A DNA stretch of 64,000 nucleotides from Porphyromonadaceae bacterium CG2_30_38_12 (GTDB lineage Bacteria > Bacteroidota > Bacteroidia > Bacteroidales > Paludibacteraceae), in the NCBI GenBank assembly GCA_001873635.1, contig MNZK01000069.1:2594-66593 (forward strand), in the 5' to 3' direction. The stretch's first letter is position 1. Each line of letters opens with the position of its first letter. This document shows positions 40,414 through 57,900 of the stretch, in pieces. The notes under the pieces are model-generated. The model was not told the origin of the DNA. It ran no database searches and saw only the letters and a list, made by a program, of their open reading frames with translations. The translations under genes and the position numbers were made by a program.

Positions 40414-43400
40414 TTAATTCTTAATTGAATGTTCCCGCCATATTGCCTGAAAGAGTGGCACCACAAAAATGGTCATCACCTGTATAATCATACCGCCGAA
40501 TGTGGGTATAGACATCGGCACCATTATATCAGCTCCTTTGCCTGTTGATGTGAGTACGGGTAACAAAGCAATCACTGCTACTGCTGTAGTCATCATAGCA
40601 GGTCGAACGCGTTTTTTTCCAGCTGCAATCACCGCTTCACGTACTTCGGTTACTGTTGAAGGATGCCTGTCCTCAAAAACCTGATGAATATACGTTCCCA
40701 TCATTACCCCATCGTCTGTTGCAATTCCGAAAAGTGCAATAAATCCTACCCAAACAGCAACACTCAAATTAATAGGGTGTATCTGAAAAAGATCACGTAA
40801 ATTTACATTGGCTACCGAAAAGTTTAAAAACCAATCCTGACCATACAACCAAAGCATAATAAATCCACCGGCAAAAGCTACAAAAACTCCCGAAAAATGG
40901 ATTAATGAAGCGGTAATGGTTTTAAATTGAAAATATAATAACAGTAAGATAAGGATTAAACTGATTGGAATTACAATAGATAAGCGTTCGGTGGCTCGTA
41001 GCTCATTTTCGTAATTCCCTGCAAATTTATATGTTACACCTTTGGGCACTTTCAATTCGCCTGTATCAATTTTTTTCTGCAACACCCCCGCAGCTTCATT
41101 TACTACATCTACCTCGGCTTTGCCTTCCACTTTATCAAAAATCACATAACCTACTAAAAATGTATTTTCACTTCGTATCATTTGCGCACCACGCGTGTAG
41201 TCAATGTCGGCAATTTCGCTTAGTGGTATCTGACTTCCATTCATGGCTGGTATCAAGATGCGTTTAATATCCTCGGGATTGTCACGTAGTTCGCGCGCAT
41301 AGCGAACCCGAATCGGGAATCGTTCGCGACCTTCCACCGAAGTACTTAGCGACATACCACCCATGGCTACCTGCAATACTTCCTGAACCTCGCTCACTGT
41401 CATTCCGTAACGAGCCATATTTTCACGGTTCAGTTTTATTTCCAAATAAGGCGCTCCCACAGCACGGTCGTAAAATACCGAACTTGCTTTTACGGAATGG
41501 ACATCTTTCAAGGCTTTCTCGAATTGCATTCCGGCGTTTTCTATCGATTCCAAATCAGGACCGTACACTTTTAAACCCATGGGCGCACGCATTCCTGTTG
41601 AAAGCATAACTAATCGTGTTTCGATAGGCTGTAATTTCGGTGCTGAAGTCAGTCCGGGGATATTGGTAACTTTCACTATTTCGTTCCATATATCAGTTGG
41701 CTTCTTAATTTCTGGTCGCCACTGACGAAAATACTCTCCATTATCGCTATGTATCAAGCTATCAGCCGGAATTGGACGAAACTCATCTTTGTCAGGTCGA
41801 AAGGTTTTTCCATTTTTCAACAAATATTCACCATCGCTATTCGTTTTGAATCGCATTCGGTGTCCGTTTTCGTCCAATAAATACTCCGACCGATAATTAA
41901 TTGTGTTTTCAAACATTTGAACTGGAGCAGGGTCTAACGAAGAATTAACACGTCCCCATTTTCCCACTGCTACTTCTACTTCAGGAATGGCTGCCAAACG
42001 TCTGTCGAGCATTTTTATGTATTGCAGATTTTTATCAATGCTTGAATGAGGCATACTGGTAGGCATCAGCAAAAAAGAACCTTCGTTCAACGATGGCATA
42101 AATTCCTTTCCAAAAGTTCTCCAAGCCATGAAACCGAATACCAAAGTAAAGATTGGTACTAGTAGAAATTTCCATTTATTAATAAGTGCCCAACGAAGTA
42201 TCGGTTCATAAAAATGAACCATACTCATCAACGCCAATAATATTATTGAAATGATACCTGCAACAAATAAGAAATTAATCAACGTACCATTGTGAGCACC
42301 CAATGGCAACCATTCGATGGTTAAATAATATAAGGCAACAAGCACCGCGATACCAATGTTGATATAATTTGGGTATTCTTTCCGTTGAGCCGACCATTTA
42401 TAATCCAATAAATTATTCACCCCTACTGCCACCAAAGCCAATGCAGGCCATATTTGCCAACTAATTACGATGACAGTGCCTCCAAGAATTAAGACGCCAT
42501 TAAAAAAGCGTCTGATTTTTTTTGTATCTATTCGTATATCGAACAGAATATGCACCATGGTTGGCAAAACAACAATCCCAAGAATAAAGGCAGAAATGAG
42601 CGCAAATGTTTTTGTAAAAGCAAGTGGATGAAATAACTTACCCTCGGCTGCTTCCATAGCAAAAACAGGCAAAAAGCTCACAATAGTGGTTGCAATGGAA
42701 GTAACAACTGCTGCACGGACTTCTGTGGTAGCGTCATAGATTACCTGCATTAACTGCTTGCCTCGCACACCTTTGTTCTCGGGCATCTCCAAATGCCGAA
42801 GAATATTCTCCACATCCACAATGCCAATATCCACCATTACCCCAATAGCAATGGCAATACCCGACAAGGCAACAATATTGGCATCGACACCAAAAAAGCG
42901 CATCAGTATAAATGTCATTAATACGCCCAAAGGCAACAAACCCGCAACAATAATCGATGATTTCAGATTGAGCACAAGTATAATTATAACAATGATACTG
43001 ATTATTATTTCGTGCGTAAGTGCTGATTCTAATGTTCCTATTGTTTCTTTAATAAGACCTGTTCGGTCGTAAAATGGAACTACAGTTACTTTTGATACGG
43101 AACCATCGGGCAATGTTTTTTGAGGTAAACCAGCTTCAATTTCTTTAATCTTAGCTTTTACATTAGCAATCACTTCCATTGGGTTTGAACCATAACGCGC
43201 TACAACTACTGCTCCAACTGCTTCGCTCCCTGCTTTGTCCAATCCTCCACGTCGCGTTGCAGGTCCAAATGAGGTTTGCGCCACATCTTTAATCCGAACC
43301 GGAACGTTGTTTCGTACCGTAACTACTGAATTGTCTAAGTCTTCTAAGCTTTTCACGTAACCCAATCCTCGAATAATGTACTCAACATTATTCAATTCAA

Positions 43401-44121
43401 TGGTTTCGGCGCCAATATCCAAGTTGCTTTTTTTTACGGCATTCATTACATCCATTACCGAAACGCCAAAAGCTTTCAACGCTTCAGGTTGTACATCAAC
43501 TTGATATTCCTTAATGAATCCGCCAACCGATGCTACTTCAGACACACCTTCGGCAGCCGAAAGACTATATTTTACATAAAAATCCTGTAAAGTGCGTAAT
43601 TCTTGCGGATTCCAGCCTCCATTGGGCTTGCCCGTTTTAGGATTGCGCCCTTCGAGCGTGTACCAAAATACTTGCCCCAGCGCAGTTGCATCGGGACCTA
43701 ATGTAGGTTGAACGCCTTCGGGCAAAGTGCCTTGTGGCAACGAATTTAGTTTTTCAAGTATGCGCGAACGGCTCCAGTAAAATTCCACATTATCTTTGAA
43801 AATAATGTAGATAAACGACATACCAAACATGGACGTACTCCGAATGGTTTTTACTCCCGGAATGCCCAAAAGTGCCGATGTGAGTGGATAACTAATCTGA
43901 TCCTGAATGTCTTTAGGTGAACGCCCCATCCACTCAGAAGATACAATTTGTTGGTTATCGCCAATGTCGGGAATTGCATCAACAGGAACGGGGTTACGAG
44001 GTATGAGGTCGGTTTTCCAATTAAATGGAGCAAACGAAATTCCCAAGACCAAAACGCTAATCAGAAATAGAACCGTTATCAGCCTATGATAGAGAAAATA
44101 ATGAACGAGTTTGTTGAACAT
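40414..44121 (-). CDS. cusA: CusA/CzcA-family heavy-metal RND permease (Cu/Ag type)
   Basis: DAIPDIGDNQ, LGPDATALGQV, IAIAIGVMVD, EFMPSLNEG, RVRPAMMT motifs; 1235 aa with insertions. Confidence 0.88.
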   Translation of the reverse strand: MFNKLVHYFLYHRLITVLFLISVLVLGISFAPFNWKTDLIPRNPVPVDAIPDIGDNQQIVSSEWMGRSPKDIQDQISYPLTSALLGIPGVKTIRSTSMFGMSFIYIIFKDNVEFYWSRSRILEKLNSLPQGTLPEGVQPTLGPDATALGQVFWYTLEGRNPKTGKPNGGWNPQELRTLQDFYVKYSLSAAEGVSEVASVGGFIKEYQVDVQPEALKAFGVSVMDVMNAVKKSNLDIGAETIELNNVEYIIRGLGYVKSLEDLDNSVVTVRNNVPVRIKDVAQTSFGPATRRGGLDKAGSEAVGAVVVARYGSNPMEVIANVKAKIKEIEAGLPQKTLPDGSVSKVTVVPFYDRTGLIKETIGTLESALTHEIIISIIVIIILVLNLKSSIIVAGLLPLGVLMTFILMRFFGVDANIVALSGIAIAIGVMVDIGIVDVENILRHLEMPENKGVRGKQLMQVIYDATTEVRAAVVTSIATTIVSFLPVFAMEAAEGKLFHPLAFTKTFALISAFILGIVVLPTMVHILFDIRIDTKKIRRFFNGVLILGGTVIVISWQIWPALALVAVGVNNLLDYKWSAQRKEYPNYINIGIAVLVALYYLTIEWLPLGAHNGTLINFLFVAGIISIILLALMSMVHFYEPILRWALINKWKFLLVPIFTLVFGFMAWRTFGKEFMPSLNEGSFLLMPTSMPHSSIDKNLQYIKMLDRRLAAIPEVEVAVGKWGRVNSSLDPAPVQMFENTINYRSEYLLDENGHRMRFKTNSDGEYLLKNGKTFRPDKDEFRPIPADSLIHSDNGEYFRQWRPEIKKPTDIWNEIVKVTNIPGLTSAPKLQPIETRLVMLSTGMRAPMGLKVYGPDLESIENAGMQFEKALKDVHSVKASSVFYDRAVGAPYLEIKLNRENMARYGMTVSEVQEVLQVAMGGMSLSTSVEGRERFPIRVRYARELRDNPEDIKRILIPAMNGSQIPLSEIADIDYTRGAQMIRSENTFLVGYVIFDKVEGKAEVDVVNEAAGVLQKKIDTGELKVPKGVTYKFAGNYENELRATERLSIVIPISLILILLLLYFQFKTITASLIHFSGVFVAFAGGFIMLWLYGQDWFLNFSVANVNLRDLFQIHPINLSVAVWVGFIALFGIATDDGVMMGTYIHQVFEDRHPSTVTEVREAVIAAGKKRVRPAMMTTAVAVIALLPVLTSTGKGADIMVPMSIPTFGGMIIQVMTIFVVPLFQAIWREHSIKN

Positions 44122-44134
44122 AATATCAATGTTT

Positions 44135-44218
44135 TAATATGCCAATGTGCTAATATGCCAATAAAGAAATGAATACCAAACAATTGACACATTGGCACAT
44201 TCCTTTATTGGCTCATTT
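44135..44218. repeat. Interleaved short inverted repeats (GCCAATGTG / GCCAATAAAG family)
   Basis: TGCCAATGTG pairs with CACATTGGCA; GCCAATAAAGAAATG pairs with CATTCCTTTATTGGC (1 mismatch); TAATATGCCAAT is directly repeated. Confidence 0.7.
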
Positions 44219-44220
44219 AA

Positions 44221-44544
44221 TTATCGGTATTTGCAGCAACCAGGGAGTGCATTATAGACTGTACTTGTGGCTTTGAACTTTGGAGTATCATGACCAACAG
44301 CAGCAATTTTTTTTTGCACATCGTCACTTTTTACTTTTGCAGGATCATAAACTAAAGTCAAAACTTTTGTTTTTTCGCTCCAAGTGGCTTTCGCCACACC
44401 ACTAACTTTAGCAGCTTTTTCAATGCGAGCTTTGCAGCTTTCGCAATTTCCGGACACTTTAATGCTTTCTGTTTTTGTTGCCGAAAATGCAACTGTTGAG
44501 ATAGTTAGAGCCATAATGGCTATAAAGAATTTTAATGTTTTCAT
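44221..44544 (-). CDS. Exported heavy-metal-associated (HMA, MerP/CopZ-like) metal chaperone
   Basis: Signal peptide, VSGNCESCKARIEKA CxxC motif, C-terminal LPGCCKYR. Confidence 0.9.
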   Translation of the reverse strand: MKTLKFFIAIMALTISTVAFSATKTESIKVSGNCESCKARIEKAAKVSGVAKATWSEKTKVLTLVYDPAKVKSDDVQKKIAAVGHDTPKFKATSTVYNALPGCCKYR

Positions 44545-44565
44545 GTTGATTTTTGTATGTAACGA

Positions 44566-44713
44566 CTCCTAAATCCCTTGTTTGACGGGACTTAAAAATC
44601 AGATTCTGTAATAAATAAAATTGGATAATAGACACGATAAATTATTTCTGTATTGATAATAGAATCAATAAAGAAACAAGGTCTTTAAGTTCCCATTGTT
44701 GGGAATTTAGGGG
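44566..44713. repeat. Inverted pair of REP-like elements flanking an inner hairpin
   Basis: CTCCTAAATCCC-ttgtttgac-GGGACTT (44566-44593) and AAGTTCCCA-ttgt-TGGGAATTTAGGGG (44687-44713) in opposite orientation; inner stem TTCTGTATTGAT/ATCAATAAAGAA (44646-44675). Confidence 0.7.
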
Positions 44714-44723
44714 CAAGTCTTAT

Positions 44724-45140
44724 TTAAATGCGGAATACACAAATGTCGGGGAGACTGACAGCGTAGGCTAAATAATTGCCTGGTGGCTGGACATGTGTGT
44801 TAGTAGTAGAATTCGTATGTAGTAGTTGAATCCCAGTCGTTTTAGTAATGTCAAAAACCTGCAGAAGTTGATTTATAGGTTGATTTGTTTGAAATGAAAA
44901 TGGGCTAAAATTACTATCTACGACAAAAAAGGACATTTCATCTTTACAACATCCTTCATTAGAGACATTAGTTAAAGGAGTTGATGCAGCTTCGCCACAC
45001 ATACCACAAGTGGCGTTCTCATGAGCAAACGAAAGTTTAACTTGTGAAATTTCACCTCCACACCAATGCGTAGCTAAACTAAGATGCATACCCGAAAGCA
45101 GTATCAAAGTTGCAAATACTATGGAGATTATTTTTTTCAT
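44724..45140 (-). CDS. Cys/His-rich hypothetical protein of the 'HYC_CC_PP' type, first gene of the metal-efflux operon
   Basis: Hydrophobic N-terminus, HWC, CGMC, CC, QPP and terminal CVFRI; own -7 box TATATTTGTA at 45155-45164. Confidence 0.75.
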   Translation of the reverse strand: MKKIISIVFATLILLSGMHLSLATHWCGGEISQVKLSFAHENATCGMCGEAASTPLTNVSNEGCCKDEMSFFVVDSNFSPFSFQTNQPINQLLQVFDITKTTGIQLLHTNSTTNTHVQPPGNYLAYAVSLPDICVFRI

Positions 45141-45207: not shown

Positions 45208-45912
45208 TTACGAACGCTTATGGAGTCCGCATTCTTTCTGTTCCGGATTTTCCCACCACCATCGTCCGGCACGTATATCTTCGCCTGGTTCGATGGCTCG
45301 TGTACATGGCTGACAGCCAATGCTTGGGAAGCCTTTGTCGTGTAATTTGTTGTAAGGCACATTGTTGGATTTAATATAATCCCACACCTGTTGTTCATTG
45401 AAATCAATGAGCGGATTGAGTTTAATAAGGTTGTTGACTTCGTCCCATTCCACCAATTGCACATGTTGACGAGTAACCGATTGCTCCCGTCGTAAACCAC
45501 AAATCCACACTTCGAGTCCGTCAAAAGCACGTTTTAAGGGGTCGAGTTTTCGCACTTTACAGCAAAGTTTGCGTTGCTCAATGCCTTCATAAAATAAATT
45601 GATGCCTTTGGCTTTCACCAGTTTTTCCACTTCCTGATAATCCGGAAATTTCACTTCGAGCTGAATGCCGTAACGAACATTGGTTTTGTCAATCAAACTG
45701 TAAGTTTCAGGAAAAAGCCGCCCTGTATCTAAGGTAAAAATTCGTGCTGACTTATCAATTTTTACAATCAAATCCGTCAGCACTTGGTCTTCAATGCTCA
45801 AACTCGATGACAACGCAATTTTAGCTTTGTATTCTGAAAGAAAATATGATAGAACCTCTTCCGGTTTTGCGTTTTGAAATTTAATATTTAGCTTGTTTAT
45901 TAATTCTTTCAT
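45208..45912 (-). CDS. cysH: APS/PAPS reductase; the Fe-S ligands suggest the APS-reducing type
   Basis: LDTGRLFPETY, CCKVRK, SIGCQPCT, RAGRWWWE, C-terminal ECGLH. Confidence 0.95.
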   Translation of the reverse strand: MKELINKLNIKFQNAKPEEVLSYFLSEYKAKIALSSSLSIEDQVLTDLIVKIDKSARIFTLDTGRLFPETYSLIDKTNVRYGIQLEVKFPDYQEVEKLVKAKGINLFYEGIEQRKLCCKVRKLDPLKRAFDGLEVWICGLRREQSVTRQHVQLVEWDEVNNLIKLNPLIDFNEQQVWDYIKSNNVPYNKLHDKGFPSIGCQPCTRAIEPGEDIRAGRWWWENPEQKECGLHKRS

Positions 45913-45970
45913 TTTGTTTTATTAAAAAAAAAATAAGTTCATTTGCGTGATTTGCATTCCAAGTTTCTTT

Positions 45971-47377
45971 CTAAATCACAAACGAATCATCTTCCAAATC
46001 GTGCACAATCATACCTGCACCAACTGTTTCGAAGGTGTTTTCATCAATGAGCACTAAACTACCCGTTACACGATTATCGCTGTAGGAATCGTATTTCAAG
46101 GGTTTGAGCGTTTTGATGGAAATGTGTGCAATGTCATTCATTTTTACATTTTTATCATCAATAATATTTCCCAACGTATTGATGTTTACCTTGTAATGCA
46201 CTGCTTTAATAATGGCTTTCGTTTCTTCGGTGGCATGACGAATAATGTATTTTCCACCTTCGTTGAGTGGACGATGATTGAGCCAACAAACCATAAGCGA
46301 CACATTAGCGTTTACAGTAGGTTGTGGTTCAGTGGTTTTTACTATTAAATCGCCGCGGCTTATATCAATATTATCTGCCAACCGAATAGTTACCGACTGA
46401 GGGGTGAAAGCTTCTTCCAACGATTTTGTGCCTTCGTCGATGGCTATTATTTTCGATTGTGTTTTGGATGGTAATACGGTTATTTCGTCACCAACACGGA
46501 ATGTGCCTCCAGAAATCCTTCCGGCATAACCACGATAATCGTGAAATTTATCACTGTACGGACGAATAACAAACTGAACAGGCAAACGAGCCGGTAAATT
46601 ATTTTCATCTTTGCGCACTGGAAGCGTTTCGAGCAATTGCAGCAAAGTCGGTCCGTTGTACCAAGGTGTATTTATTGAAGCATCCACCACATTGTCGCCA
46701 TTTAAAGCTGAAATAGGGATGAAAATGACATTTTTAAGCTTTAGAATTTTTGATATTTGTTTATACTCATCGATAATTTTAGTAAAAACTTCGTTCGAGA
46801 AAGCTACTAAATCCATTTTGTTGACAGCTACAACTACATTTGGTATTTGCAGCAATGAAGCAATGTACGAATGGCGTTTGCTTTGTTCAATGATACCGTT
46901 TCGGGCATCAATCAAAATAATTGCCACATCGGCAGTAGAAGCTCCGGTAACCATATTGCGTGTATATTCAATGTGTCCCGGGGTGTCGGCAATAATAAAT
47001 TTGCGTTTTGGCGTAGCAAAATAGCGATACGCCACATCGATGGTAATTCCTTGTTCGCGTTCGGCACGTAATCCGTCGGTTAGCAAGGCTAAATTAACTT
47101 CTTCGTTCCCACTGATGCGTTTGCTGGCATCTTTTACTGCCTGTAATTGATCTTCGAAAATTGATTTGCTATCATAAAGCAATCGCCCGATAAGCGTACT
47201 TTTTCCATCATCCACGCTACCAGCTGTGCTGAAGCGAAGGAGTTCCATATCTAAGTAACCCCCAGCCCCTAAAGGGGAGTTGGAATTAGATTCGTTTTGT
47301 AATTTTTGATTTGAACTGCCCCTAACCCCTAAAGGGGAATTGATGCTAGTTTCGTCTATTTTATTCTTATCTATCAT
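45971..47377 (-). CDS. cysN: Sulfate adenylyltransferase GTPase subunit
   Basis: GSVDDGKST, EREQGITID, DTPGH, NKMD motifs. The N-terminal 43 aa contain REP-like sequence; alternative start at 47248. Confidence 0.95.
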   Translation of the reverse strand: MIDKNKIDETSINSPLGVRGSSNQKLQNESNSNSPLGAGGYLDMELLRFSTAGSVDDGKSTLIGRLLYDSKSIFEDQLQAVKDASKRISGNEEVNLALLTDGLRAEREQGITIDVAYRYFATPKRKFIIADTPGHIEYTRNMVTGASTADVAIILIDARNGIIEQSKRHSYIASLLQIPNVVVAVNKMDLVAFSNEVFTKIIDEYKQISKILKLKNVIFIPISALNGDNVVDASINTPWYNGPTLLQLLETLPVRKDENNLPARLPVQFVIRPYSDKFHDYRGYAGRISGGTFRVGDEITVLPSKTQSKIIAIDEGTKSLEEAFTPQSVTIRLADNIDISRGDLIVKTTEPQPTVNANVSLMVCWLNHRPLNEGGKYIIRHATEETKAIIKAVHYKVNINTLGNIIDDKNVKMNDIAHISIKTLKPLKYDSYSDNRVTGSLVLIDENTFETVGAGMIVHDLEDDSFVI

Positions 47378-47435
47378 ATTGCTTTATGTTAATATTATCA
47401 ATACTAATTTCTGTTCCCCTTTAGGGGTTAGAGGC
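47259..47435. repeat. Cluster of three REP-like palindromes (core CCCCTAAAGGGG)
   Basis: CCCCCAGCCCCTAAAGGGGAGTT (47259-47281), GCCCCTAACCCCTAAAGGGGAATT (47318-47341; cores exactly 60 bp apart) and an inverted copy TTCCCCTTTAGGGGTTAGAGGC (47414-47435). Confidence 0.88.
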
Positions 47436-47446
47436 AGGTTTTTAAA

Positions 47447-48349
47447 TTAAAAATATCCTGCTTTTTTTCGGTCTTCCATAGCTGCTTCGGAGCGTTTATC
47501 GTCAGCCCGTCCGCCGCGTTCTGTAACGCGCGAAGTGGCAATTTCGTCGATAATATCTGCGATGGAGTTTGCTGTTGAGAGTGTGAGTCCGGTGCAGGTA
47601 ATGTCGCCAATAGTACGACAGCGAACTTGTTTAATTTCAACTTTTTCTGTTGCGCGTCGGGGCATTTCGGGTAAGGCGGCATAGATAATACCATCGCGTT
47701 CAAAAACTTCGCGTTCGTGCGTGTAGTAAAGCGATGGGAGCGGAATATTTTCCTGTAAAATGTATTGCCACACATCCATTTCAGTCCAGTTGCTGATAGG
47801 GAAAATGCGGAAATGCTCTCCTACTTGTTTTTTACCATTGAAGATATTCCAAAGCTCTGGACGTTGATTCTTGGGATCCCACTGTCCAAATTCATCGCGG
47901 TGCGAAAAGAAACGTTCTTTGGCGCGCGCTTTTTCTTCATCGCGGCGCGCTCCTCCTAATGCTGCATCGAATTTGTATTTATCGAGTGTATCGAGTAGTG
48001 TTACAGTTTGCAATTTGTTGCGGCTTGCCGAAAAACCTTTTTCTTCAACGGCTCGCCCCTGCGCAATTGATTCTTCTACCGACCCAACAATGATCTGCGC
48101 ACCAAGCAACTGAACCAATTCATTGCGATAGCTAAGTGTTTCGGAAAAGTTGTGCCCCGTGTCGATATGTACAAATGGGAATGGAATAGCAGCGGGATAG
48201 AAGGCTTTGTAAGCAAGATAAGCCATCACAATGGAATCTTTGCCACCAGAAAATAGCAATGCCGGTTTTTCAAATTGCGCTGCTACTTCTCTAAGAATGT
48301 AGATTGATTCGGATTCTAATTCTTTTAAATGAGTGAGTTTGTAATTCAT
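47447..48349 (-). CDS. cysD: Sulfate adenylyltransferase subunit 2
   Basis: FSGGKDS PP-loop, GGARRDEEKARAKER, WDPKNQRPELW, MEDRKKAGYF. Confidence 0.97.
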   Translation of the reverse strand: MNYKLTHLKELESESIYILREVAAQFEKPALLFSGGKDSIVMAYLAYKAFYPAAIPFPFVHIDTGHNFSETLSYRNELVQLLGAQIIVGSVEESIAQGRAVEEKGFSASRNKLQTVTLLDTLDKYKFDAALGGARRDEEKARAKERFFSHRDEFGQWDPKNQRPELWNIFNGKKQVGEHFRIFPISNWTEMDVWQYILQENIPLPSLYYTHEREVFERDGIIYAALPEMPRRATEKVEIKQVRCRTIGDITCTGLTLSTANSIADIIDEIATSRVTERGGRADDKRSEAAMEDRKKAGYF

Positions 48350-48364
48350 ATTTCAATATTAATT

Positions 48365-49639
48365 TTAATTTCTTAATGCACTTTCAACGGCTTTTAGCGT
48401 GTGATTTAGATGAGCATCCGTATGTGTTATAGATATAAAATTCGCTTCAAAAGGCGAAGGAGAAAAATAGACGCCTTGTGCCACTAGTTTTTGAAAAAAA
48501 ATTGAAAAACGTGCTGTATCGATTTTTTTTACATCATCGTAATTCTTTAATTCGTGTTGCGAAAAAAATAAAGTAAACATGGAACCCATTTGTTGAATAA
48601 CTATGCCTTTGTTTTTTGTTAGTTTGCAAAGTTCAGCAACAAATGCAGTCGTTTTTTGCTCAAGTTGCGTGTAAAAACCTGGTTCCAATAGTTGCTTAAT
48701 GGTTTCTATACCTGCATGCATTGCCACTGGATTTCCTGACAATGTGCCTGCTTGATAAACGGAACCTAAGGGCGCAAGCTGATCCATAATTTCTTTTTTG
48801 CCACCAAAAGCAGCAGCAGGAAAACCTCCTCCCACGATTTTTCCAATGGTAGTCAAATCGGGAATAACTTGCCATATTTCCTGAGCACCTCCCAGTCCCA
48901 GTCGAAAACCGGAAATAACTTCGTCGAAAATGAGTAAAGCTCCATAGTGAGTTGTAATTTCACGCAAACCTTCCAAAAAACCAGTTTGTGGAATAATTAC
49001 ACCCATATTGGCTGGAACTGGTTCTAAAATTATTGCTGCTATGGCATTGCCTTGTCTGGCGAAAACCGACTTGACAGCGTTTAAATCGTTGAATGGCAGG
49101 CTAATGGTAAGTTTGGCAAATTCGGCAGGAACGCCTGCCGACGAAGACTGACCAAGTTGTGCCACGCCCGAACCTGCACTTACCAACATCGAATCGCTGT
49201 GTCCGTGATAGCAACCATCAAATTTTATAACAATTCGTCGCCCGGTGAATCCACGTGCTAAGCGCAGTGCACTCATAACTGCTTCGGTACCCGAACTCAC
49301 GAAACGTACTTTTTCAATAGAAGGAACTGCCTGAACAACCATTTTTGCTAATTCAGTTTCGACGAGGGTGGGAATTCCAAAACTACTTCCGTTGGCTATG
49401 GCATTGATAGCACTGGCATTTACTTTTTTGTTTCCATGTCCTAAAATGAAAACGCCCCACGACAAACAAAAATCGATATACTGATGGCCATCAATGTCGG
49501 TAAACATATCTTCGTAAGCCGATTGCACAAACAATGGAGCTACACCCACGCTACGAAGTGCACGTACAGGACTATTCACGCCGCCCGGAATATATTCAAC
49601 AGCTTCGTTATAAGCCTTTTCGGACAAAATCCTTTGCAT
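48365..49639 (-). CDS. hemL: Glutamate-1-semialdehyde 2,1-aminomutase
   Basis: PGGVNSPVRA, SGTEAVMSA, FDEVISGFR, GKIVGGGFP, YQAGTLSGNP. Confidence 0.96.
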   Translation of the reverse strand: MQRILSEKAYNEAVEYIPGGVNSPVRALRSVGVAPLFVQSAYEDMFTDIDGHQYIDFCLSWGVFILGHGNKKVNASAINAIANGSSFGIPTLVETELAKMVVQAVPSIEKVRFVSSGTEAVMSALRLARGFTGRRIVIKFDGCYHGHSDSMLVSAGSGVAQLGQSSSAGVPAEFAKLTISLPFNDLNAVKSVFARQGNAIAAIILEPVPANMGVIIPQTGFLEGLREITTHYGALLIFDEVISGFRLGLGGAQEIWQVIPDLTTIGKIVGGGFPAAAFGGKKEIMDQLAPLGSVYQAGTLSGNPVAMHAGIETIKQLLEPGFYTQLEQKTTAFVAELCKLTKNKGIVIQQMGSMFTLFFSQHELKNYDDVKKIDTARFSIFFQKLVAQGVYFSPSPFEANFISITHTDAHLNHTLKAVESALRN

Positions 49640-50573
49640 AATACGTAATTATAAAGTTAGCGCCAGCACGTTTTATGGCTGTGAGCGATTCTAAAAATCC
49701 TTGTTCTTCGTTAATTAAACCTGCAGCAGCACCATTTTTGAGCAGCGCATACTCCCCCGATACCTGATAAGCAGTCATAGGAACTTCAGGAAATTTTTGA
49801 TGCGCACGCTGAATAATATCTAAATAAGCTAAAGCTGGTTTTACCATCACCCAGTCGGTGCCTTCCTTAATGTCAGCCTCAATTTCGTCTATTCCCTGAT
49901 GAAGCGTTCTGTAATCCATTTGATAAGTTTTCCTATCGCCAAAATTAGGTGCCGAACCCGCTGCCTCGCGAAATGGTCCGTAAAAATTAGATGCGTATTT
50001 AGCCGAATAAGCTAACACTTTTGTGGGTAATTGATGAATTTTCAAAATCGTTTTTAATGCCTCAATTTGTCCGTCCATCATAGCTGATGGTGCAACAAAA
50101 TCGGCTCCGGCTTGCGCATGTACCAAAGCTATTTTTGCCAGCAAAGGCAAAGAGCTGTCATTGTCAATTCGTTCACCATCAAGCAATCCGCAATGTCCGT
50201 GGGATGTGTATTCGCATAGACAAACATCGGTAAAAATTTGCAATGTTGGAAACGTCTTTTTTATAGCTCGCACCGCGCGACAAATTAAGGAGTTGGGATC
50301 ATAACCCTCAGTGCCTAATTCATCTTTTAAATTAGTACTAATAACACCAAAAAGTAAAATTTTATCTATGCCTAAGCGGACAGTTTCATCCAAATCAATC
50401 AATAACTTATCGATTGAAAAACGTGAAATGCCTTTTAGTGATTTAATAGGTTGAATTTCGTTTACGCCATCCACTACAAAATAAGGATATATAAAATCAG
50501 ATGCCGAAATTCGAATGTCGGCATATATGTCGCGGGTTGCGGCATCGGTTCTGAATTGTCTAAATCTTTTCAT
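49608..50573 (-). CDS. hemB: Porphobilinogen synthase (Zn-type ALA dehydratase)
   Basis: DVCLCEYTSHGHCG, APSAMMDGQ, YSAKYASNFYGPFRE, VMVKPA, YQVSGEY. Confidence 0.96.
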   Translation of the reverse strand: MKRFRQFRTDAATRDIYADIRISASDFIYPYFVVDGVNEIQPIKSLKGISRFSIDKLLIDLDETVRLGIDKILLFGVISTNLKDELGTEGYDPNSLICRAVRAIKKTFPTLQIFTDVCLCEYTSHGHCGLLDGERIDNDSSLPLLAKIALVHAQAGADFVAPSAMMDGQIEALKTILKIHQLPTKVLAYSAKYASNFYGPFREAAGSAPNFGDRKTYQMDYRTLHQGIDEIEADIKEGTDWVMVKPALAYLDIIQRAHQKFPEVPMTAYQVSGEYALLKNGAAAGLINEEQGFLESLTAIKRAGANFIITYYAKDFVRKGL

Positions 50574-50607: not shown

Positions 50608-52605
50608 TTAATATCCCAACAATGAAGATGAGTTAAATCTCTTCTCTGTTTCTTTTCCTCGAAATATATAATTTTTATTTTCGGGAAATTTACCATATAG
50701 TCGTAGAAAGTTTGTAACACACGATGGCGACGAAAATACAATATTTGTAATATCTGATAAATCGAGAGGCTCCAAGTTTTTGGGGTAGGTATTGTTATAA
50801 ACACTTACCGTTGCAACATCCCATCCTATTTTTTTTAAGCCTTCGGGCAGAACTGGTAAACCTATGTCCGAACGTGGAATAAGCACTTTACCCACCGGAA
50901 TATTGTTTGTTTCAAAGTCCTTGAGCAAACCAATAGAAGACTCTTCCGATGCTTGAATTTCGGGAATTATGCCGTGAGATTTCAATGCTAACGATGTAAT
51001 TCTACCCACCGATGCAATTTTAAGTCCAGCTAAATGACGGGCATCTTTGTCAAATTTTTCAAGCGCTTCAAAAAAGAAATCTACCGTATAACGACTCGTA
51101 AAAAATAACCAGTGGTAGTTAGCAAGTCTGTTTATTTCAATTTCCAAAGGCGTATTGGGCCAAATAGCCTCAATTTGAATTAATGGCTGGTGAATAACAG
51201 TTCCTAATTGCTCGTAATGTTCTTTTTGAGTTCCAGTAACTAAATAATTGGGGCGTTTCACAGCGTTTTCTGTTTGATATCTGAGCGCTACTACATTGCC
51301 AATAATTGCAATAATTGGTGTAGGAAATATCCGCGTTTCGGTGCTTAGAGTTTCTAAATCACTTTGAAATTCTGATTGAGCAGATGTGGAAACATTAGCA
51401 ACTAACAGTACTGGAGTTTTAGGGTTTTTGCCGTTAGCAATAGCTTGGGCAGCAACTTTGGCAATGTTGAAGCCGGCCATGTAGCATACCACCGTGTCCG
51501 AATTTGGAAAATTGATTTGAGCTGCTTGTCCGCTCACAAAAGACACCGAGGAAGCAATGTTTCTGTGAGTGAGTGGTATTTGAGTGAGTGCTGCTAAAGC
51601 CAATGCAGTAGTAATACCTGGAATAACGTCAACTTCTACAAAATTACTTTTGAGATATTCTAACTCTTCTCCGCCATGAGCAAAAATAAGTGGGTCGCCC
51701 CCTTTTAAACGAACCACCTTGCTGCCTAATTTTGCTTCATCCAATAGGAGCCGGTTTATTTGCTGTTGCTCGTTGCTATGAGCACCTTTGCGTTTACCTA
51801 CATATACCTTTTTGGCTTTATACTTTATCAGAAAATCTTTATCAATTAAGTCGTCGTAAAATATGCTATCAGCTTGTGCTATACACTTTTCGGCAGCCAG
51901 AGTAAGCAAATCAGGGTTACCCGGACCAAAACCAACCAATGTAACTTTACCCCAGTTTTTTCGACTATCTAAGGGTGCAAACTTGTTTTTTAAATCTTTG
52001 CTATTACGTCGAGCCACTACAGCAATATGTCCTTGTAATGGGTGTGTCTCAAAGCGTAAAACTTGAGTAATGTGCGCACTTAAATGTAATCGTTTTAGGG
52101 CACAACTTGCTACTATAAGTGCATCGATATTACCATTTTCAACCTCAGCAATTCGTTCCTCGATGGTGCCCCGCACGGCAACTATTTTTAGATCAGGGCG
52201 ATCAGCAAGCACCTGCCTCCGACGTGTAAGGGAGCTTGTACCAATGCGAGCTTGTAAAGGGAGCTGCTCTAAGGTTAGCTGGTTCTTGCTCACTAAAGCA
52301 TCAGTCTGGTCAGTAGCTTCTAACAAGGCAATCAATTCCAAATCAGACGCTAATGGATAAGGCAAATCTTTTGCCGAATGTATTGCTATGTCCACATTTC
52401 CTTGCTGCAATGCTTGATCTAATTCGCGTGTGAAAAAATCTGCCGGCTGATTTTCGAGCAACGAAAGTTGTTTATTTATATCTCCGAATGATTTAATGTT
52501 AATAAGTTCAAAATTAACTTTAGTAAAATGAGATAGTACAATTTCCACTTGTGCCATGGCAAGTGCACTTGTACGTGTAGCTACTTTAAGATTCAAATTA
52601 CTCAT
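50608..52605 (-). CDS. Triple fusion: truncated hydroxymethylbilane synthase (HemC, aa ~1-215) + uroporphyrinogen-III C-methyltransferase (CobA, ~219-442) + uroporphyrinogen-III synthase (HemD, ~450-665)
   Basis: ATRTSALAMAQ, HSAKDLP, IGTSS (HemC); VGFGPGNPDLLT, RLKGGDP, VIPGIT (CobA); FFTSRYTV, VGRITS, FSSPSCV (HemD). Confidence 0.9.
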   Translation of the reverse strand: MSNLNLKVATRTSALAMAQVEIVLSHFTKVNFELINIKSFGDINKQLSLLENQPADFFTRELDQALQQGNVDIAIHSAKDLPYPLASDLELIALLEATDQTDALVSKNQLTLEQLPLQARIGTSSLTRRRQVLADRPDLKIVAVRGTIEERIAEVENGNIDALIVASCALKRLHLSAHITQVLRFETHPLQGHIAVVARRNSKDLKNKFAPLDSRKNWGKVTLVGFGPGNPDLLTLAAEKCIAQADSIFYDDLIDKDFLIKYKAKKVYVGKRKGAHSNEQQQINRLLLDEAKLGSKVVRLKGGDPLIFAHGGEELEYLKSNFVEVDVIPGITTALALAALTQIPLTHRNIASSVSFVSGQAAQINFPNSDTVVCYMAGFNIAKVAAQAIANGKNPKTPVLLVANVSTSAQSEFQSDLETLSTETRIFPTPIIAIIGNVVALRYQTENAVKRPNYLVTGTQKEHYEQLGTVIHQPLIQIEAIWPNTPLEIEINRLANYHWLFFTSRYTVDFFFEALEKFDKDARHLAGLKIASVGRITSLALKSHGIIPEIQASEESSIGLLKDFETNNIPVGKVLIPRSDIGLPVLPEGLKKIGWDVATVSVYNNTYPKNLEPLDLSDITNIVFSSPSCVTNFLRLYGKFPENKNYIFRGKETEKRFNSSSLLGY

Positions 52606-52681: not shown

Positions 52682-53563
52682 TTATACCTCCTTTATGGTA
52701 TATAAATGCGAAAATAAATTTATTTCTTCTTCTATAATCTCATTTGCTAGCAACATTTTGTGTCTGCGCGCTTCCATGTTTTGATGCACCCTGTTTTTTA
52801 TGTCTTCCAAGTTGTAAAGGGTTACATTGGGCATATTGCCAATTCGCTCATCTACATCGCGTGGAAATCCTAAATCGAATATAATTATATTTTGTTTGGT
52901 TGAAATGTGTTCGGGTTTTACAACTATGTGAGGAGCCGAAGTCGCAGTGATAAGCACATCGGTATATTCCAAAAATGAGCTCATTTCATCAAAATGAAAT
53001 GCTTTGCATTGATATTTTTCAGCCATATCTTGGGCTTTTTCAAAATATCTATTTCCAAGAAAAATTGAAAATGCTTCTTTTGCATTCAAAAATTTTATAA
53101 TATCTTCGTTCAACTTGTTGATTCCAAGCATGGTGATGAGTGCGTTTTTTAATTGTATTTTTTCCGAAAGTAAACATTCTATCACTGCCTGACTGTGCGA
53201 AATAGCACCTTGCGAAATAGTAGATTCTGTGCGTACCCTTTTTCCTACACGCAAGGCTGTTTGAAATAACTTGTGTAAACTTGCCGATAGTTTGAATTTT
53301 TGTGCTGCCTCTTCGTAGCAAGTTTTTACTTGTCCCTGAATGGCACATTCGCCAATTAGGGATGAATCCAAACCAGAAACAATGCTGAAAAGATGACGAT
53401 AAATGTTCTCCGGAATAGTTCCTTCGCCCCAGTAAAACTCTACACGGTCGCAAGTTTGTAACCGTACATGCGCCGTGTTTGAGGGTAATTGGAAGGTGCT
53501 TAAAAAGTCTTCTCGCTCAATCAATGTGCTGTTCGATTGGCTTTTAGATATGTAATGTACCAT
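52682..53563 (-). CDS. hemA: Glutamyl-tRNA reductase, short divergent form
   Basis: QTCDRVEFY (cf. STCNRxE), HLFSIVSGLDS..GE..IQGQVK, KRVRTEST, ATSAPH, DLGFPRDVD; only about 293 aa. ATG 53563 or TTG 53569. Confidence 0.85.
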   Translation of the reverse strand: MVHYISKSQSNSTLIEREDFLSTFQLPSNTAHVRLQTCDRVEFYWGEGTIPENIYRHLFSIVSGLDSSLIGECAIQGQVKTCYEEAAQKFKLSASLHKLFQTALRVGKRVRTESTISQGAISHSQAVIECLLSEKIQLKNALITMLGINKLNEDIIKFLNAKEAFSIFLGNRYFEKAQDMAEKYQCKAFHFDEMSSFLEYTDVLITATSAPHIVVKPEHISTKQNIIIFDLGFPRDVDERIGNMPNVTLYNLEDIKNRVHQNMEARRHKMLLANEIIEEEINLFSHLYTIKEV

Positions 53564-54011
53564 TTTCAAATAAGTTGGTTATCTGATTCCGAATAGCTAC
53601 CGCTTGATAAGCATCGCGGGCATTAGTGCCTACCGAAATGGTTACATGCTCTTGTTTGTGGATGGCGGGCGACACAAAATCGCACAATAACGGGGCATCG
53701 CACACACTGGTCAGAATGCCAAGCTCTTCGGCATCTGCTTTTATCTGTGCGTTTAAGTCGTGATTGCCTGTAACTGCATATACCAGAAAGTATCCTTCTA
53801 AATCGCCTTTTTCATATTCCTTTTGGATAAATGTAAAAGGTAATTTCCGTATTTCGTCCGTAAATTCGGGCGAAACAACCGTAACGTTTTGAACAAAGCG
53901 CGCCATGATAGTTCCCTTGTGTGTTGCCACCTTTCCCCCACCAATGAGAAGTATCTTTTTATTGGTTACGTTGATAGATATGGGCAAAAACAGTAAGTCT
54001 TCTCGTTTCAT
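53544..54011 (-). CDS. Precorrin-2 dehydrogenase / sirohydrochlorin ferrochelatase (CysG N-terminal / Met8 / SirC-like)
   Basis: LPISIN...LLIGGGKVA Rossmann motif, VCDAPLLCDFVSPA, ISVGT. Confidence 0.88.
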   Translation of the reverse strand: MKREDLLFLPISINVTNKKILLIGGGKVATHKGTIMARFVQNVTVVSPEFTDEIRKLPFTFIQKEYEKGDLEGYFLVYAVTGNHDLNAQIKADAEELGILTSVCDAPLLCDFVSPAIHKQEHVTISVGTNARDAYQAVAIRNQITNLFENGTLHI

Positions 54012-55747
54012 AAGGTGTGAAAATTTAATCCTGCGGTGGTTGCTTTTATATACCCTTTACGAATTACAAAATCGCCAAAATGCTCATCTTTTTGTTTCGT
54101 CTGGGCATAATCCGCCAATAATGGTGTTAGTTCAGCCAGTATTTGCTCTTCGGTGAGCATCTCTTTGTATAATTTATTTAGTCGGTCGCCAACGAAGCTT
54201 GCTCCAAGATATAAATTATATTTCCCAGGTGCTCTTCCTACCAATGCTATTTCGGCTAAAAAAGGGCGTCCGCAACCATTAGCACAGCCAGTCATACGAA
54301 TGCTTATGGGAGTATTTAGTAGTCCATGAGCTTTAAGAATTTCATCTATTTTGTCAATAAATGATGGTAAATAGCGTTCGGCTTCGGCAAATGCCAAACT
54401 ACATAATGGCAATGCTGCACAGGCAATTGAATTTTGGCGTAATTGCGATAATTTTTCGGTATGTAGTACCTTGTATTTTTTTAATAAAGCTTCAATTTGT
54501 GGCTTTTGCTCTTCAGAGACTTCTGCTATCACCACATTTTGGTTTCCGGTAAGGATAAAAGTTCCAGTATGAATTTTTGCTATTTCGCGCAATGCCGTTT
54601 TGGCATTCAAGCCACTACGGTCACCTAATTTACCTCCTTCAACAAATACTCCATAGTGCCATAAACCATTTTCGCCTTTTGTCCAACCATACTTATCGCC
54701 CAAGGTTTGGAAGTTATAGGGCTTGGCTGTTTGCAAAGTTATGCCCTTATTTCGAATTAGTTCGGTTCGAAAAAAATCCAAGCCCAATCGGTCAACAGTA
54801 TATTTTAAACGTGCATTTTTACGTTCCGATCGGTTACCATGGTCACGTTGAAAAATCACTACGCCCTCCGCTACTTCTACTAATTGTTCTTTTGGAAAAT
54901 AGCCTACAATGTCGGCAACTCGCGGATAGGTAGCTGTATTGCCAAAGGTAAATGCCATGCCACCTCCAACGCTCAGGTTATAGCCCGTTAGCTTCCCATT
55001 TTCAACAATGGCAATAAAGCCTAAATCGTTAGACAAAACATCAGTATCGTTGCGAGGAGGAATCGCAAAAGCTGTTTTAAATTTTCGTGGCAAATAGGTT
55101 TTTCCATACAATGGTTCTTCTTCTTCTTTTTCACCGCCTGCCACTAATTCTCCGTCCAGCCATATTTCGTGGTAAGCGTTGGTTTGTGGAGTCAGATGTG
55201 CCGATACGCGTTTAGCATCTTCAGCCACTTCGCTATGTATGGACGATTCAAAAGGATTTGCCGAAGCCATAACATTTCGGTTTACATCACCACACGCAGC
55301 AATGGTGTCCAACAAACTTTTGTTAATTTCCTGTATCGTTTTTTTTAAATTTCTTTTCAATACACCATGCAACTGAAATGCTTGACGGGTGGTTAGTTTA
55401 AGTGTTTTGTCGCCATATTTATCAGCCAAACTATCTATCTCTAACCATTGCTGAGCGGTGGTAACACCCCCAGGAACCCGTATGCGAATAAGAAAGCCAT
55501 ACAAGGGTTCGAGTTTTTGTTTTTTGCGTTCACTATCCACGTCACGGTTTTGTTGCTGATAAGAACCGTGAAACTTTATCAATAGCTGGTCATCGGGCGA
55601 AATTGCTCCTGTGATAGGGTCTTGTAGTCCTTCAGCTATTGTGCCACGCAAATAATTGCTTTTTTCTTTCAGTGTTTCAAAGCTGTTTAATGTACCTTCT
55701 CCGCCTCCAGCTAATGATTTGTAATTTGTTTCGTTGGTGTTGCTCAT
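54008..55747 (-). CDS. cysI: Assimilatory sulfite reductase hemoprotein subunit
   Basis: KFHGSYQQ, TTRQAFQLHG, CGDVNRN, YLPRKFK, CAALPLC and TGCANGCGR siroheme/Fe-S ligands. Confidence 0.96.
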   Translation of the reverse strand: MSNTNETNYKSLAGGGEGTLNSFETLKEKSNYLRGTIAEGLQDPITGAISPDDQLLIKFHGSYQQQNRDVDSERKKQKLEPLYGFLIRIRVPGGVTTAQQWLEIDSLADKYGDKTLKLTTRQAFQLHGVLKRNLKKTIQEINKSLLDTIAACGDVNRNVMASANPFESSIHSEVAEDAKRVSAHLTPQTNAYHEIWLDGELVAGGEKEEEEPLYGKTYLPRKFKTAFAIPPRNDTDVLSNDLGFIAIVENGKLTGYNLSVGGGMAFTFGNTATYPRVADIVGYFPKEQLVEVAEGVVIFQRDHGNRSERKNARLKYTVDRLGLDFFRTELIRNKGITLQTAKPYNFQTLGDKYGWTKGENGLWHYGVFVEGGKLGDRSGLNAKTALREIAKIHTGTFILTGNQNVVIAEVSEEQKPQIEALLKKYKVLHTEKLSQLRQNSIACAALPLCSLAFAEAERYLPSFIDKIDEILKAHGLLNTPISIRMTGCANGCGRPFLAEIALVGRAPGKYNLYLGASFVGDRLNKLYKEMLTEEQILAELTPLLADYAQTKQKDEHFGDFVIRKGYIKATTAGLNFHTL

Positions 55748-55789: not shown

Positions 55790-57577
55790 TTAGTAAACAT
55801 CCATCTGTAAACGTTTATTTTTCTGTAAATTATCTAAGTATTCCTGAGCAGCTTCGCTGCTTACAGATGCTTGATTTTCAATAATTTTCAGTAAAACTTG
55901 TTGCACATCTTTTGCCATTTTTTTTCTGTCACCACAAATGTAAATATGTGCTCCTTGTTCTAACCAACTATATACTTCTGATGCGTTTTCATACAATTTA
56001 TCTTGCACATATAATTTTTTTGTGCCATCGCGCGAAAAAGCTACATCCATTTTTGTAAGTACTCCTCTTTGAATATAATCTTGCCATTCTGTTTGATACA
56101 GAAACTCAGATTCAAAATTTCGATTGCCAAAAATTAACCAACTTTTACCTCTGTTTTCAACGAGCTCCCTATGTTGCACAAACCCACGGTATGGTGCAAT
56201 TCCAGTACCTGCACCCACCATAATGATTGGCGTTTGAGGATTTGTAGGTAATTTGAACTCCGGATTCTTCTCAATAAATATCGGTACTACTTCGTAGTCC
56301 ATTGTTAATTCAGATAAATAGCTCGAGCAGGCTCCTTTTTTTGTTCTTCCTGCATGCTTGTATTTCACCACTCCTACCGTGAGGTGCAATTCCCCTTGCA
56401 AGGCTTGCATACTCGATGCAATGGAATAATATCGGGGTTGAAGTGGACGCAAAATGCGCACTAAACTATTTGCATCTAAATCGCTTGGAAAATCTATTAA
56501 TAAATCTACAATATCACGTCCTTCTAAATATTCTTTTAATAAATCTGGCTGCGTGGCAAGTTCACTAAGCTTTTTGTTGCCTATGAGTGCGGCATAGCGT
56601 GTTAGCACATCCACGCTAATTTTGGATAACTCTACATCGCGATACAGCACATCTTCTAACTTTTTATTTTTGTCTTGTATTTGTATTATTTCACCGGCAT
56701 TAAAACCTGTTTCAGCTAAAAATTCACTTATTAAAGTTGCCGAATTTACAGGTATTATGCCTGCGGCATCACCCGGTTCATAGTCAAATCCTTGCTCTGG
56801 GATGCTCAATTCTAAATGAATGGTTTCCCTATCTGATCCCGCCCCATGCAATTGTATTTTTTCTAATACCGTAGCTTGAAATGGATTTGTTTTTGTATAA
56901 ATAGATTGGGTATTGCTAAGTTCAATACTTGTATTGGTTTGCAAAGGTTGGTTTGCCATATTTGAGTCGTTTCCAACAAAACTTTGCAGCGCAGTTGCTA
57001 ACCAAGCTTCTGATTGCGATAAGTCCACATCGCATGTTTGAAGAGCAAGCACACGTGTTGCTCCTAATTTTTCGAGTTGGGCATCAACATCTTTCCCTGT
57101 TTTGCAAAAATAAAAATACGATGAGTCGCCCAATGCAAGCACTGCATAACGTACATCATTTAGCTTTGTGGCTCTGTTGCCATGTATAAAGTCGTAAAAC
57201 TCTTTGGCAGCAAAAGGTGGCTCTCCTTCGCCATGTGTCGATACAATAACTAATAGGTTTTGTTCGCCCTGTAAATCTCTTCCTTTGTAGTCGGCCATGT
57301 TTTTTATTGTTGCCGTTATGCCAATTTCTTGAGCCATTTTAGCGGCTATTTTGGCTAAGCCTTCCCCATTGCCTGTACGCGAACCGTATAGTATAGTGAG
57401 TTTATGTTGCTGTTGCTGTTGCTGTGTTTCAACTTGTGTTAGTTGCGCTTGTTTGGCTGTTAAACCTGCAAAATAGCCAGCCACCCAACTTGCTTGAAGT
57501 GGGCTTAGTGTAGTGCTGAAATTGTGAAGTAAACTTGCTTGCTCGTTTGATAATGGGCTTAGAGAAGGTGTATCCAT
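55790..57577 (-). CDS. cysJ: Assimilatory sulfite reductase flavoprotein subunit
   Basis: YGSRTGN flavodoxin loop, STHGEGEPP, RYYSIASS, GAGTGIAP, ICGD, C-terminal DVY. Confidence 0.96.
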   Translation of the reverse strand: MDTPSLSPLSNEQASLLHNFSTTLSPLQASWVAGYFAGLTAKQAQLTQVETQQQQQQHKLTILYGSRTGNGEGLAKIAAKMAQEIGITATIKNMADYKGRDLQGEQNLLVIVSTHGEGEPPFAAKEFYDFIHGNRATKLNDVRYAVLALGDSSYFYFCKTGKDVDAQLEKLGATRVLALQTCDVDLSQSEAWLATALQSFVGNDSNMANQPLQTNTSIELSNTQSIYTKTNPFQATVLEKIQLHGAGSDRETIHLELSIPEQGFDYEPGDAAGIIPVNSATLISEFLAETGFNAGEIIQIQDKNKKLEDVLYRDVELSKISVDVLTRYAALIGNKKLSELATQPDLLKEYLEGRDIVDLLIDFPSDLDANSLVRILRPLQPRYYSIASSMQALQGELHLTVGVVKYKHAGRTKKGACSSYLSELTMDYEVVPIFIEKNPEFKLPTNPQTPIIMVGAGTGIAPYRGFVQHRELVENRGKSWLIFGNRNFESEFLYQTEWQDYIQRGVLTKMDVAFSRDGTKKLYVQDKLYENASEVYSWLEQGAHIYICGDRKKMAKDVQQVLLKIIENQASVSSEAAQEYLDNLQKNKRLQMDVY

Positions 57578-57637: not shown

Positions 57638-57868
57638 CTAAATTTGATAATCATCAACCGATTCGTGTACCTTACCAATGTTTACTTTATTCCAAATGCG
57701 TTCGTGTAAATAATACAAAGAAATTTTTGTTACTATCTCAATACCGCTAATTGAAATAGCTAATTTTACATGACCTGTAACTAAATATGAAATTATAAAA
57801 GTATCCAATGTGCCAGTTAAGCGCCACGAAATGGATTTCAATAAACTGCGGTAATTTTTTTCTTTCAT
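57638..57868 (-). CDS. Small membrane protein (DUF2061-type), first gene of the cys operon
   Basis: RSLLKSISWRLTGTLDT...YYLHERIW pattern. ATG at 57868 lies downstream of the -7 box, so it is preferred over 57895. Confidence 0.8.
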   Translation of the reverse strand: MKEKNYRSLLKSISWRLTGTLDTFIISYLVTGHVKLAISISGIEIVTKISLYYLHERIWNKVNIGKVHESVDDYQI

Positions 57869-57890
57869 TTTTTTTGTTCTGTTGGTACGC

Positions 57891-57900
57891 TGCAAAGTTA
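57891..57900 (-). promoter_or_regulatory. -7 promoter box of the cys/hem operon
   Basis: TAACTTTGCA on the minus strand. Confidence 0.72.

Follow-up and report, generated by a model that had tools for sequence, protein, structure and literature searches.

The gene on the minus strand at positions 50608-52605 of the window (the whole 64,000-nucleotide stretch of DNA that was analysed) encodes a HemC that consists of domains 1 and 2 only and continues in frame into CobA and HemD. This two-domain HemC is real, conserved and a variant of a known enzyme. In canonical HemC, the dipyrromethane cofactor is carried by a Cys on a loop of domain 3 (Cys242 in E. coli). Taking all the readings discussed below together, the domain is very probably an active hydroxymethylbilane (HMB) synthase without this canonical anchor.

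The HemC-CobA-HemD fusion and its operon

The fusion is a single open frame of 665 aa. Its modules, two key codons and the neighbouring genes are, in window coordinates:

45208..48349, minus strand: cysD, cysN and cysH, for sulfate activation and reduction, at the end of the run (TIGR02039, TIGR02034 and PRK02090, above cut-off)
48365..49639, minus strand: HemL, glutamate-1-semialdehyde aminomutase (TIGR00713, above cut-off)
49608..50573, minus strand: HemB, porphobilinogen (PBG) synthase, maker of the HemC substrate (PRK09283, above cut-off)
50608..51255, minus strand: HemD uroporphyrinogen-III synthase module with the stop codon, aa 451-665 (PF02602, E 6.3e-38)
51271..51951, minus strand: CobA uroporphyrinogen-III C-methyltransferase module, aa 219-445 (TIGR01469, 224 bits, cut-off 185)
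51955..52605, minus strand: HemC domains 1-2, domain 3 absent, aa 1-217 (PF01379 at aa 6-206, E 5e-53)
52102..52104, minus strand: codon of Cys168, counterpart of E. coli Ala172 and sole Cys of the HemC part
52366..52368, minus strand: codon of Asp80, aligned with the catalytic Asp84 of E. coli and Asp99 of human (131/131 in the clade)
52682..53569, minus strand: short HemA, 295 aa (TIGR01035, 203 bits, just below the cut-off of 209.55)
53544..54011, minus strand: SirC-like precorrin-2 dehydrogenase, 155 aa (TIGR01470, above cut-off, model positions 1-146 of 205)
54008..55747, minus strand: CysI, siroheme-dependent sulfite reductase haemoprotein (TIGR02041, above cut-off)
55790..57577, minus strand: CysJ, sulfite reductase flavoprotein (TIGR01931, above cut-off)

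An earlier note on this DNA had described a HemC lacking domain 3 fused in frame to CobA and HemD, and Pfam, motif spacing and structure alignment all bear this out. A Pfam search with the 665-aa ORF also placed PF00590 at aa 220-420 and PF02602 at aa 468-659 (130.6 bits against a gathering cut-off of 27.5, model positions 12-212 of 231), with the domain-3 model PF03900 absent from the matches at E<=10, and the TIGR01469 match to the CobA module spans model positions 1-237 of 238. The CobA motif GKVTLVGFGPG begins at aa 219. When 150 fusions were aligned, the QG motif of HemC and the GxGPG motif of CobA were both found in 147, and the two are 32 residues apart in 142 of these (range 31-50); since PF03900 comprises 74 positions, there is no room for domain 3 between HemC and CobA. 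The hemC equivalog TIGR00212 is matched above its cut-off (183.6 against 164 bits), but the match is confined to the first 218 of its 293 positions. For aa 1-217, the AlphaFold model (pLDDT 96) superposes on E. coli HemC (PDB identifier 1PDA) over residues 3-222 only, with a Z of 24.5 and an rmsd of 1.3 Å, and the alignment stops at E. coli 222-226, before Cys242. TM-scores by query against solved HemC structures are 0.88-0.92 (0.88 to 1PDA). PF01379 and the match to 1PDA identify the fold of this part as two solute-binding-protein-like domains that form the catalytic cleft. A frameshift or assembly error is ruled out by the open frame and the homologous fusions: all 119 other top matches are annotated with PF01379 and PF00590, most also with PF02602 and none with PF03900, and thus the fusion is not an assembly artefact. 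Bifunctional CobA-HemD fusions are known from Clostridium, Desulfovibrio and others, and like them the window gene joins methyltransferase and uroporphyrinogen-III synthase in one chain; unlike them, it adds an in-frame two-domain HemC upstream with almost no linker.

The gene belongs to a same-strand run, cysJ, cysI, sirC-like, hemA, hemC-cobA-hemD, hemB, hemL, cysD, cysN and cysH, which is the route from glutamyl-tRNA towards siroheme together with a siroheme-requiring sulfite reductase. The dimerisation domain PF00745 is absent from the Pfam matches of the 295-aa HemA; it is found in none of 24 genomes with short HemC as against six of seven with canonical HemC, and therefore the truncations of HemA and HemC travel together. 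Flanking the run are a small gene for a DUF2061 membrane protein, immediately upstream of cysJ (57638-57895, minus strand), and, directly downstream of cysH, a CusA/CzcA-type heavy-metal RND transporter region (40414-45140, minus strand) in which two small Cys-motif genes precede the transporter. The closest named relatives are Paludibacter and other Bacteroidales. Within the host genome, which is 82.6% complete, neither CbiX and CbiK chelatases nor HemE were found, and PF01379 has a single match, the fusion gene. The earlier note had held that a domain 3 in the ORF or in a separate partner, or a canonical hemC elsewhere coupled with failed hemC complementation, would speak against its reading; neither a domain 3 nor a canonical hemC was found in the ORF or in the 82.6%-complete genome, in which PF03900 has no match and our own domain-3 profile reached a best E of 4.8 against 43,564 six-frame segments. 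A separately encoded domain 3 was equally without a match in the 24 short-type genomes of the same family.

Distribution of two-domain HemC and replacement of the canonical form

Among the collected sequences with a near-complete PF01379 domain, 392 lack domain 3 and 86 have it. The architectures seen, some of them fragments, include HemC-CobA-HemD (182), HemC alone (116), HemC-CobA, HemC-HemD, HemA-HemC and SirC-HemA-HemC, and named loci come from Bacteroidota, Omnitrophota, Kiritimatiellota, Lentisphaerota, Planctomycetota, Margulisiibacteriota and Chlamydiota. The SirC-HemA-HemC triple fusions (P0280, P0322, P0332 and relatives) form a subclade in which domain 2 is followed at once by a conserved DLG...PW tail, and one named member of this subclade is from Armatimonadota. 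Short and canonical HemC are separated by one branch of an unrooted 196-row tree (FastTree support 0.956) with the exception of P0317, a C-terminally cut fragment that was dropped later, and again in a smaller unrooted tree of 35 short and 28 canonical rows (SH-aLRT 99); the canonical rows are the best scorers against a short-type profile. The window gene has no domain 3, has the DFFT lid, has lost the counterpart of E. coli Arg101 and lies on the short side of the branch.

The short form is already catalogued as NCBIfam PRK01066 / NF002202, a family of 241 positions annotated by similarity as hydroxymethylbilane synthase, which we take to be the Chlamydia family; the statement in the earlier note that short HemC occurs in Chlamydiae is thereby supported. 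The window gene resembles this family in its two-domain architecture and falls in the same wider clade of the tree, though it scores 176.9 bits, below the cut-off of 251 (model positions 18-235 of 241). The Chlamydiota-like members differ from it in having Ala or Ser at position 168 (39 and one of 40 loci, respectively) and in mostly keeping the counterpart of Arg131. These loci are from the phylum of genome G155, which tree and gene neighbours suggest to be Chlamydiota; 65 of 80 scored genomes of this phylum have one PF01379 match, and the 40 loci examined show no domain 3. A literature search that covered few subscription journals turned up no study of a domain-3-less HemC and no activity data for any member, which does not prove that none exists. 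Section 22 of a 2026 review (PMC13564367) presents the self-assembled, Cys-bound dipyrromethane as the basis of the mechanism and gives no exception there; PMC3738108 and bioRxiv 10.1101/2021.02.09.429727 were also drawn on.

Some operons with short HemC are of the siroheme kind, and others are of the protohaem type and lack CobA. At the two loci of the latter kind, L032 and L035, CobA gave no match and the neighbouring genes resemble hemE, hemN and hemG/Y by eye from their N-terminal sequences. In the HemC-HemD fusions at L022-L026 and L032 (HemC ORF of about 514 aa), the middle resembles a remnant of the C-terminal half of CobA; here CobA has decayed and HemC and HemD are still under selection.

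In a sample of 151 genomes from the family of the source bacterium, PF01379 occurs as a single copy in 32, of which 25 are of the short type and seven canonical (310-332 aa). HemB is present in these 32 genomes and in no others, so that the remaining 119 lack both genes. Domain 3 (PF03900) was detected in 7/7 canonical genomes versus 0/24 other short-type genomes, 21 of the latter having a completeness of 90% or more and a contamination of 5% or less. Thus, short HemC stands in one-for-one for canonical HemC inside complete operons. As these genomes are kin rather than independent and the genes within an operon share their gains and losses, the counts show replacement within the pathway, not activity. 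The HemC part is under purifying selection, with dN/dS of 0-0.25 and a median of 0.084 over 11 non-independent pairs (a twelfth, L026/L032, is identical, yields no ratio and was left out); two canonical pairs gave 0.05 and 0.11. These low ratios rule out pseudogene decay.

As regards the idea that short HemC also replaces HemD, HemD is present in 31/31 family genomes tested, each of which has another HemD-family match outside the hem cluster. Five other genomes, of completeness not given, yielded two clear HemD matches, one below threshold and two without a match. Clusters with HemA, short HemC, CobA, HemB and HemL were seen at L044 and L033, and HemD gave no match in these clusters or in their genomes (G151 and G154; completeness likewise not given).

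Active-site residues of two-domain HemC

Residues were mapped on 131 short-type and 64 canonical sequences below 62% identity, with pyrrole contacts taken from Table 2 of PMC7959689 (human); E. coli residue numbers were read off the alignment and human numbers derived by offset, with Arg26=Arg11, Asp99=Asp84 and Arg173=Arg155 as anchors (given in the same source). The window gene has Arg11, Ser13, Gln19, Ser77, Asp80, Arg145 and Arg151, with Thr in place of E. coli Asn151. Nine of the ten substrate-site residues (human Arg26, Ser28, Gln34, Phe77, Ser96, Asp99, Arg167, Gly168 and Arg173) are kept in 130-131 of the 131 short-type sequences, the exception being Asn169, kept in only 44. The site-1 counterparts of Lys98, Arg150, Ala189, Arg195 and Gly218 are as well preserved (130-131/131), and the catalytic Asp80, Gln19 and Arg11 are invariant (131/131). 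At site 2, Ser146 and Ser147 are kept and Thr145 mostly so, and the Arg149 counterpart persists in 56/131 short-type versus 64/64 canonical sequences. The site-4 Thr102 counterpart is found in 3/131 versus 35/64, and that of Arg116, which forms a salt bridge with Glu250 of domain 3 in human HMBS (PMC10577081), in 5/131 versus 64/64. Among the cofactor-binding arginines of E. coli, the counterparts of Arg132, Arg155 and Arg176 are retained in the window gene and that of Arg131 is Thr127. The earlier note was right that GTSSLTRR is an altered form of GTSSLRR, though the Thr is a substitution rather than an insertion, since Thr127 aligns with Arg131 and Arg128 with Arg132; its RGTIEER in place of RGNVxTR is upheld by the alignment to E. 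coli, which has RGNVGTR.

Two-domain HemC therefore resembles canonical HMBS/PBGD (E. coli, PDB identifier 1PDA; A. thaliana, 4HTG; human, 7CCY) in the fold of domains 1-2, in substrate-site and site-1 residues and in its place in the pathway between HemB and HemD. It differs in having no domain 3, cofactor loop or counterpart of Cys242/261, to which the window gene adds the loss of the Arg131 and Arg101 counterparts, the latter being Ala97. The canonical lid GGKGLF is replaced by xxDFFT and the canonical PAVGQG by HPLQG. The HPLQG segment, Asp56, Lys45 and Glu150 are novelties of the clade, though no new residue was found to be invariant across the whole of it.

Several substitutions typical of the clade have human equivalents in a yeast-complementation map (PMC10577081), in which Arg149Thr, Gly216Leu and Thr172Glu score 0 and Ala191Cys 0.19, although human scores may not transfer to short HemC because of compensating changes. 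That such changes are null in the human map suggests a site that has been remodelled and departs from the cofactor-dependent design. In supplement file 3 of the same source, Ser75Asp scores 0.46, Arg116Ala 0.62, Asn169Thr 0.67 and Thr102Tyr 1.2; as Arg116Ala still reaches 0.62, losing Arg116 alone is a mild change. The chemistry of deamination and C-C bond formation thus looks intact in short HemC, and the region that binds the cofactor and takes up the moving chain looks rebuilt. Two candidate devices for limiting the chain were weakened: residue 83 as a steric wall, because human Thr102Tyr is tolerated, and Asp56 as a universal end-stop for the ring-A amine, which is found in 127/131 sequences but is Asp in only one of ten small-genome members.

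Proposed priming and chain growth without domain 3

In the canonical cycle as modelled in PMC7959689, each PBG binds at one site, is deaminated and then condenses with the terminal ring; chain and cofactor loop move back together, and this ends when the loop reaches domain 3. We tentatively favour, at somewhat less than an even chance, the reading that the HemC part is an active HMB synthase that would join four PBG without a covalently anchored primer. A first PBG, retaining its aminomethyl group, would lie in pyrrole site 1 as a free acceptor, bound by Lys79, Arg128, the NH of Ala166, Arg172, the NH of Gly192 and Asp80. The next PBG would occupy the substrate site (Arg11, Ser13, Gln19, Ser77, Arg145 and Arg151), be deaminated with the help of Asp80 and Gln19 and then be attacked by the acceptor. 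The chain, held by salt bridges only, would slide one ring outward per round towards the side opened by the missing domain 3. Three condensations would give an aminomethylbilane, a compound that canonical enzyme reportedly converts (Battersby's work); this would be deaminated to HMB and passed to HemD, and CobA would then make precorrin-2 for the siroheme of CysI. Chain length, which the canonical model assigns to domain 3, would at a guess be set by capture by HemD together with cyclisation of the tetramer.

In favour of this primer-free cycle are the loss of the domain, the intact substrate site and site 1, purifying selection, one-for-one replacement, the substitutions that are null in the human map and the occurrence in both kinds of operon, as is the existence of members without any Cys (9/100 stand-alone proteins of at most 250 aa). 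Against it, the Cys is essential in the enzymes studied (human Cys261 is intolerant to change; PMC10577081), the canonical apo-enzyme is described as unstable, the model has no demonstrated chain-length ruler and both candidate end-stops failed to hold up, the loss of Arg149 loosens the hold on a free chain and not only on a cofactor, and the conservation of Cys168 and His188 in the window gene's own subclade exceeds what the model needs. The further suggestion of the earlier note, that HMB and uro'gen III are channelled within the chain, finds no support beyond the fusion itself and a full-length model with pTM 0.79. This type of HemC is also found on its own or joined to HemA, to CobA only or to HemD only, and a HemC-HemD complex prediction returned a score of 0.00 and the output 'no answer', which weighs neither way.

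More broadly, and only as a joint proposition that we likewise hold at a little under even, two-domain HemC may represent a widespread second class of HMB synthase with neither covalent primer nor domain-3 ruler, its chain length set by cyclisation or hand-over to HemD, and may form the centre of a slimmed-down tetrapyrrole module, in which it is paired with short HemA and which has spread between phyla and displaced the canonical pathway. A selected enzyme without a Cys-bound primer would allow priming, sliding and length control to be studied directly in a protein of 217 residues, with the help of an E. coli hemC mutant. Gut and rumen Bacteroidales, Omnitrophota, Kiritimatiellota and Chlamydiota carry the short form, and so, if the mechanism of this form is truly unlike that of human HMBS, it could be a selective antibacterial target; the three-enzyme chain from PBG to precorrin-2 could also serve tetrapyrrole production.

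The earlier note had offered a relocated Cys or a non-covalent primer, of which the non-covalent option is the better supported; the relocated Cys does not hold family-wide and is possible for the subclade. It was correct that Cys168 is the only Cys of the HemC part (aa 1-218 examined), and the conservation that it wished to see checked is complete in the nearest fusions (120/120) and nearly so in a wider set (147/150, along with His188). We consider it unlikely that Cys168 is a relocated covalent anchor for dipyrromethane, or for ring A directly, in this subclade, possibly activated by His188, with other members using a different solution. The subclade (SH-aLRT 99) combines Cys168, His188, an aromatic residue 83 and loss of Arg127, and it is this fixation of Cys168 and His188 that makes a local anchor possible. 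Cys168 lies two residues past Ala166 and four before Arg172, both site-1 ligands in the human structure, and His188-Pro189 correspond to the human Val215 segment, which contacts ring C1 in ES2 (PMC7907807). Across the clade, however, position 168 is Cys in only 79/131 (38 Ala, 10 Val, 3 Ile and 1 Ser) and the tree shows at least 10 changes there, as befits a small packing residue, and 3/64 canonical enzymes also have Cys there; since Cys-free members exist, the family as a whole cannot depend on a Cys anchor. Cys168 also starts a fixed helix in the AlphaFold model (H167-172), whereas the canonical anchor loop must move one ring per cycle (described in PMC7959689). Coupling of Cys168 with loss of Arg127, with His188 or with an aromatic residue 83 is strong in raw counts (for Arg127, among 132 sequences, 64 Cys without Arg, 42 Arg without Cys, 15 both and 11 neither) but not supported by independent pairs, the contrasts for Cys168-Arg127 and Cys168-His188 resting on four supported pairs and having no power.

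A dipyrrole primer bound tightly but non-covalently in sites 1-2, from which the tetrapyrrole would be cleaved off as in the canonical enzyme, strikes us as improbable. Most cofactor-binding residues of these sites remain (Lys79, Asp80, Ser124, Ser125, Arg128 and Arg151), but the Arg149 counterpart, a ligand of ring c1, is lost in 75/131, and during elongation a primer without a tether would have to leave sites 1-2 for others that domain 3 helps to form (as outlined in PMC7959689). To much the same degree we doubt an anchor in trans or another nucleophile, whether from an unrelated partner, the fused CobA or HemD module or a non-Cys residue. The full-length model of the 665-aa chain (pTM 0.79; 0.65 for the Atlas model of the same chain) suggests an ordered arrangement of at least some modules, and a divergent partner could escape domain-3 profiles; yet the profile searches in the host and the 24 short-type genomes gave no match, the Arg that docks domain 3 is lost, short HemC occurs with differing fusion partners and also on its own, and neither the other Cys of the fusion (Cys241, Cys374 and Cys629), which are not conserved, nor any new clade-invariant residue offers a substitute. 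Slightly less probable still is that the domain is a PBG-binding or regulatory module and no longer a polymerase, HMB coming from another enzyme. Its fold is that of solute-binding proteins and it carries changes that are null in the human HMBS map (PMC10577081); on the other side stand the invariant Asp80, Gln19 and Arg11, the lack of another candidate gene in the operons examined, and a presence that tracks HemB exactly in 151 genomes.
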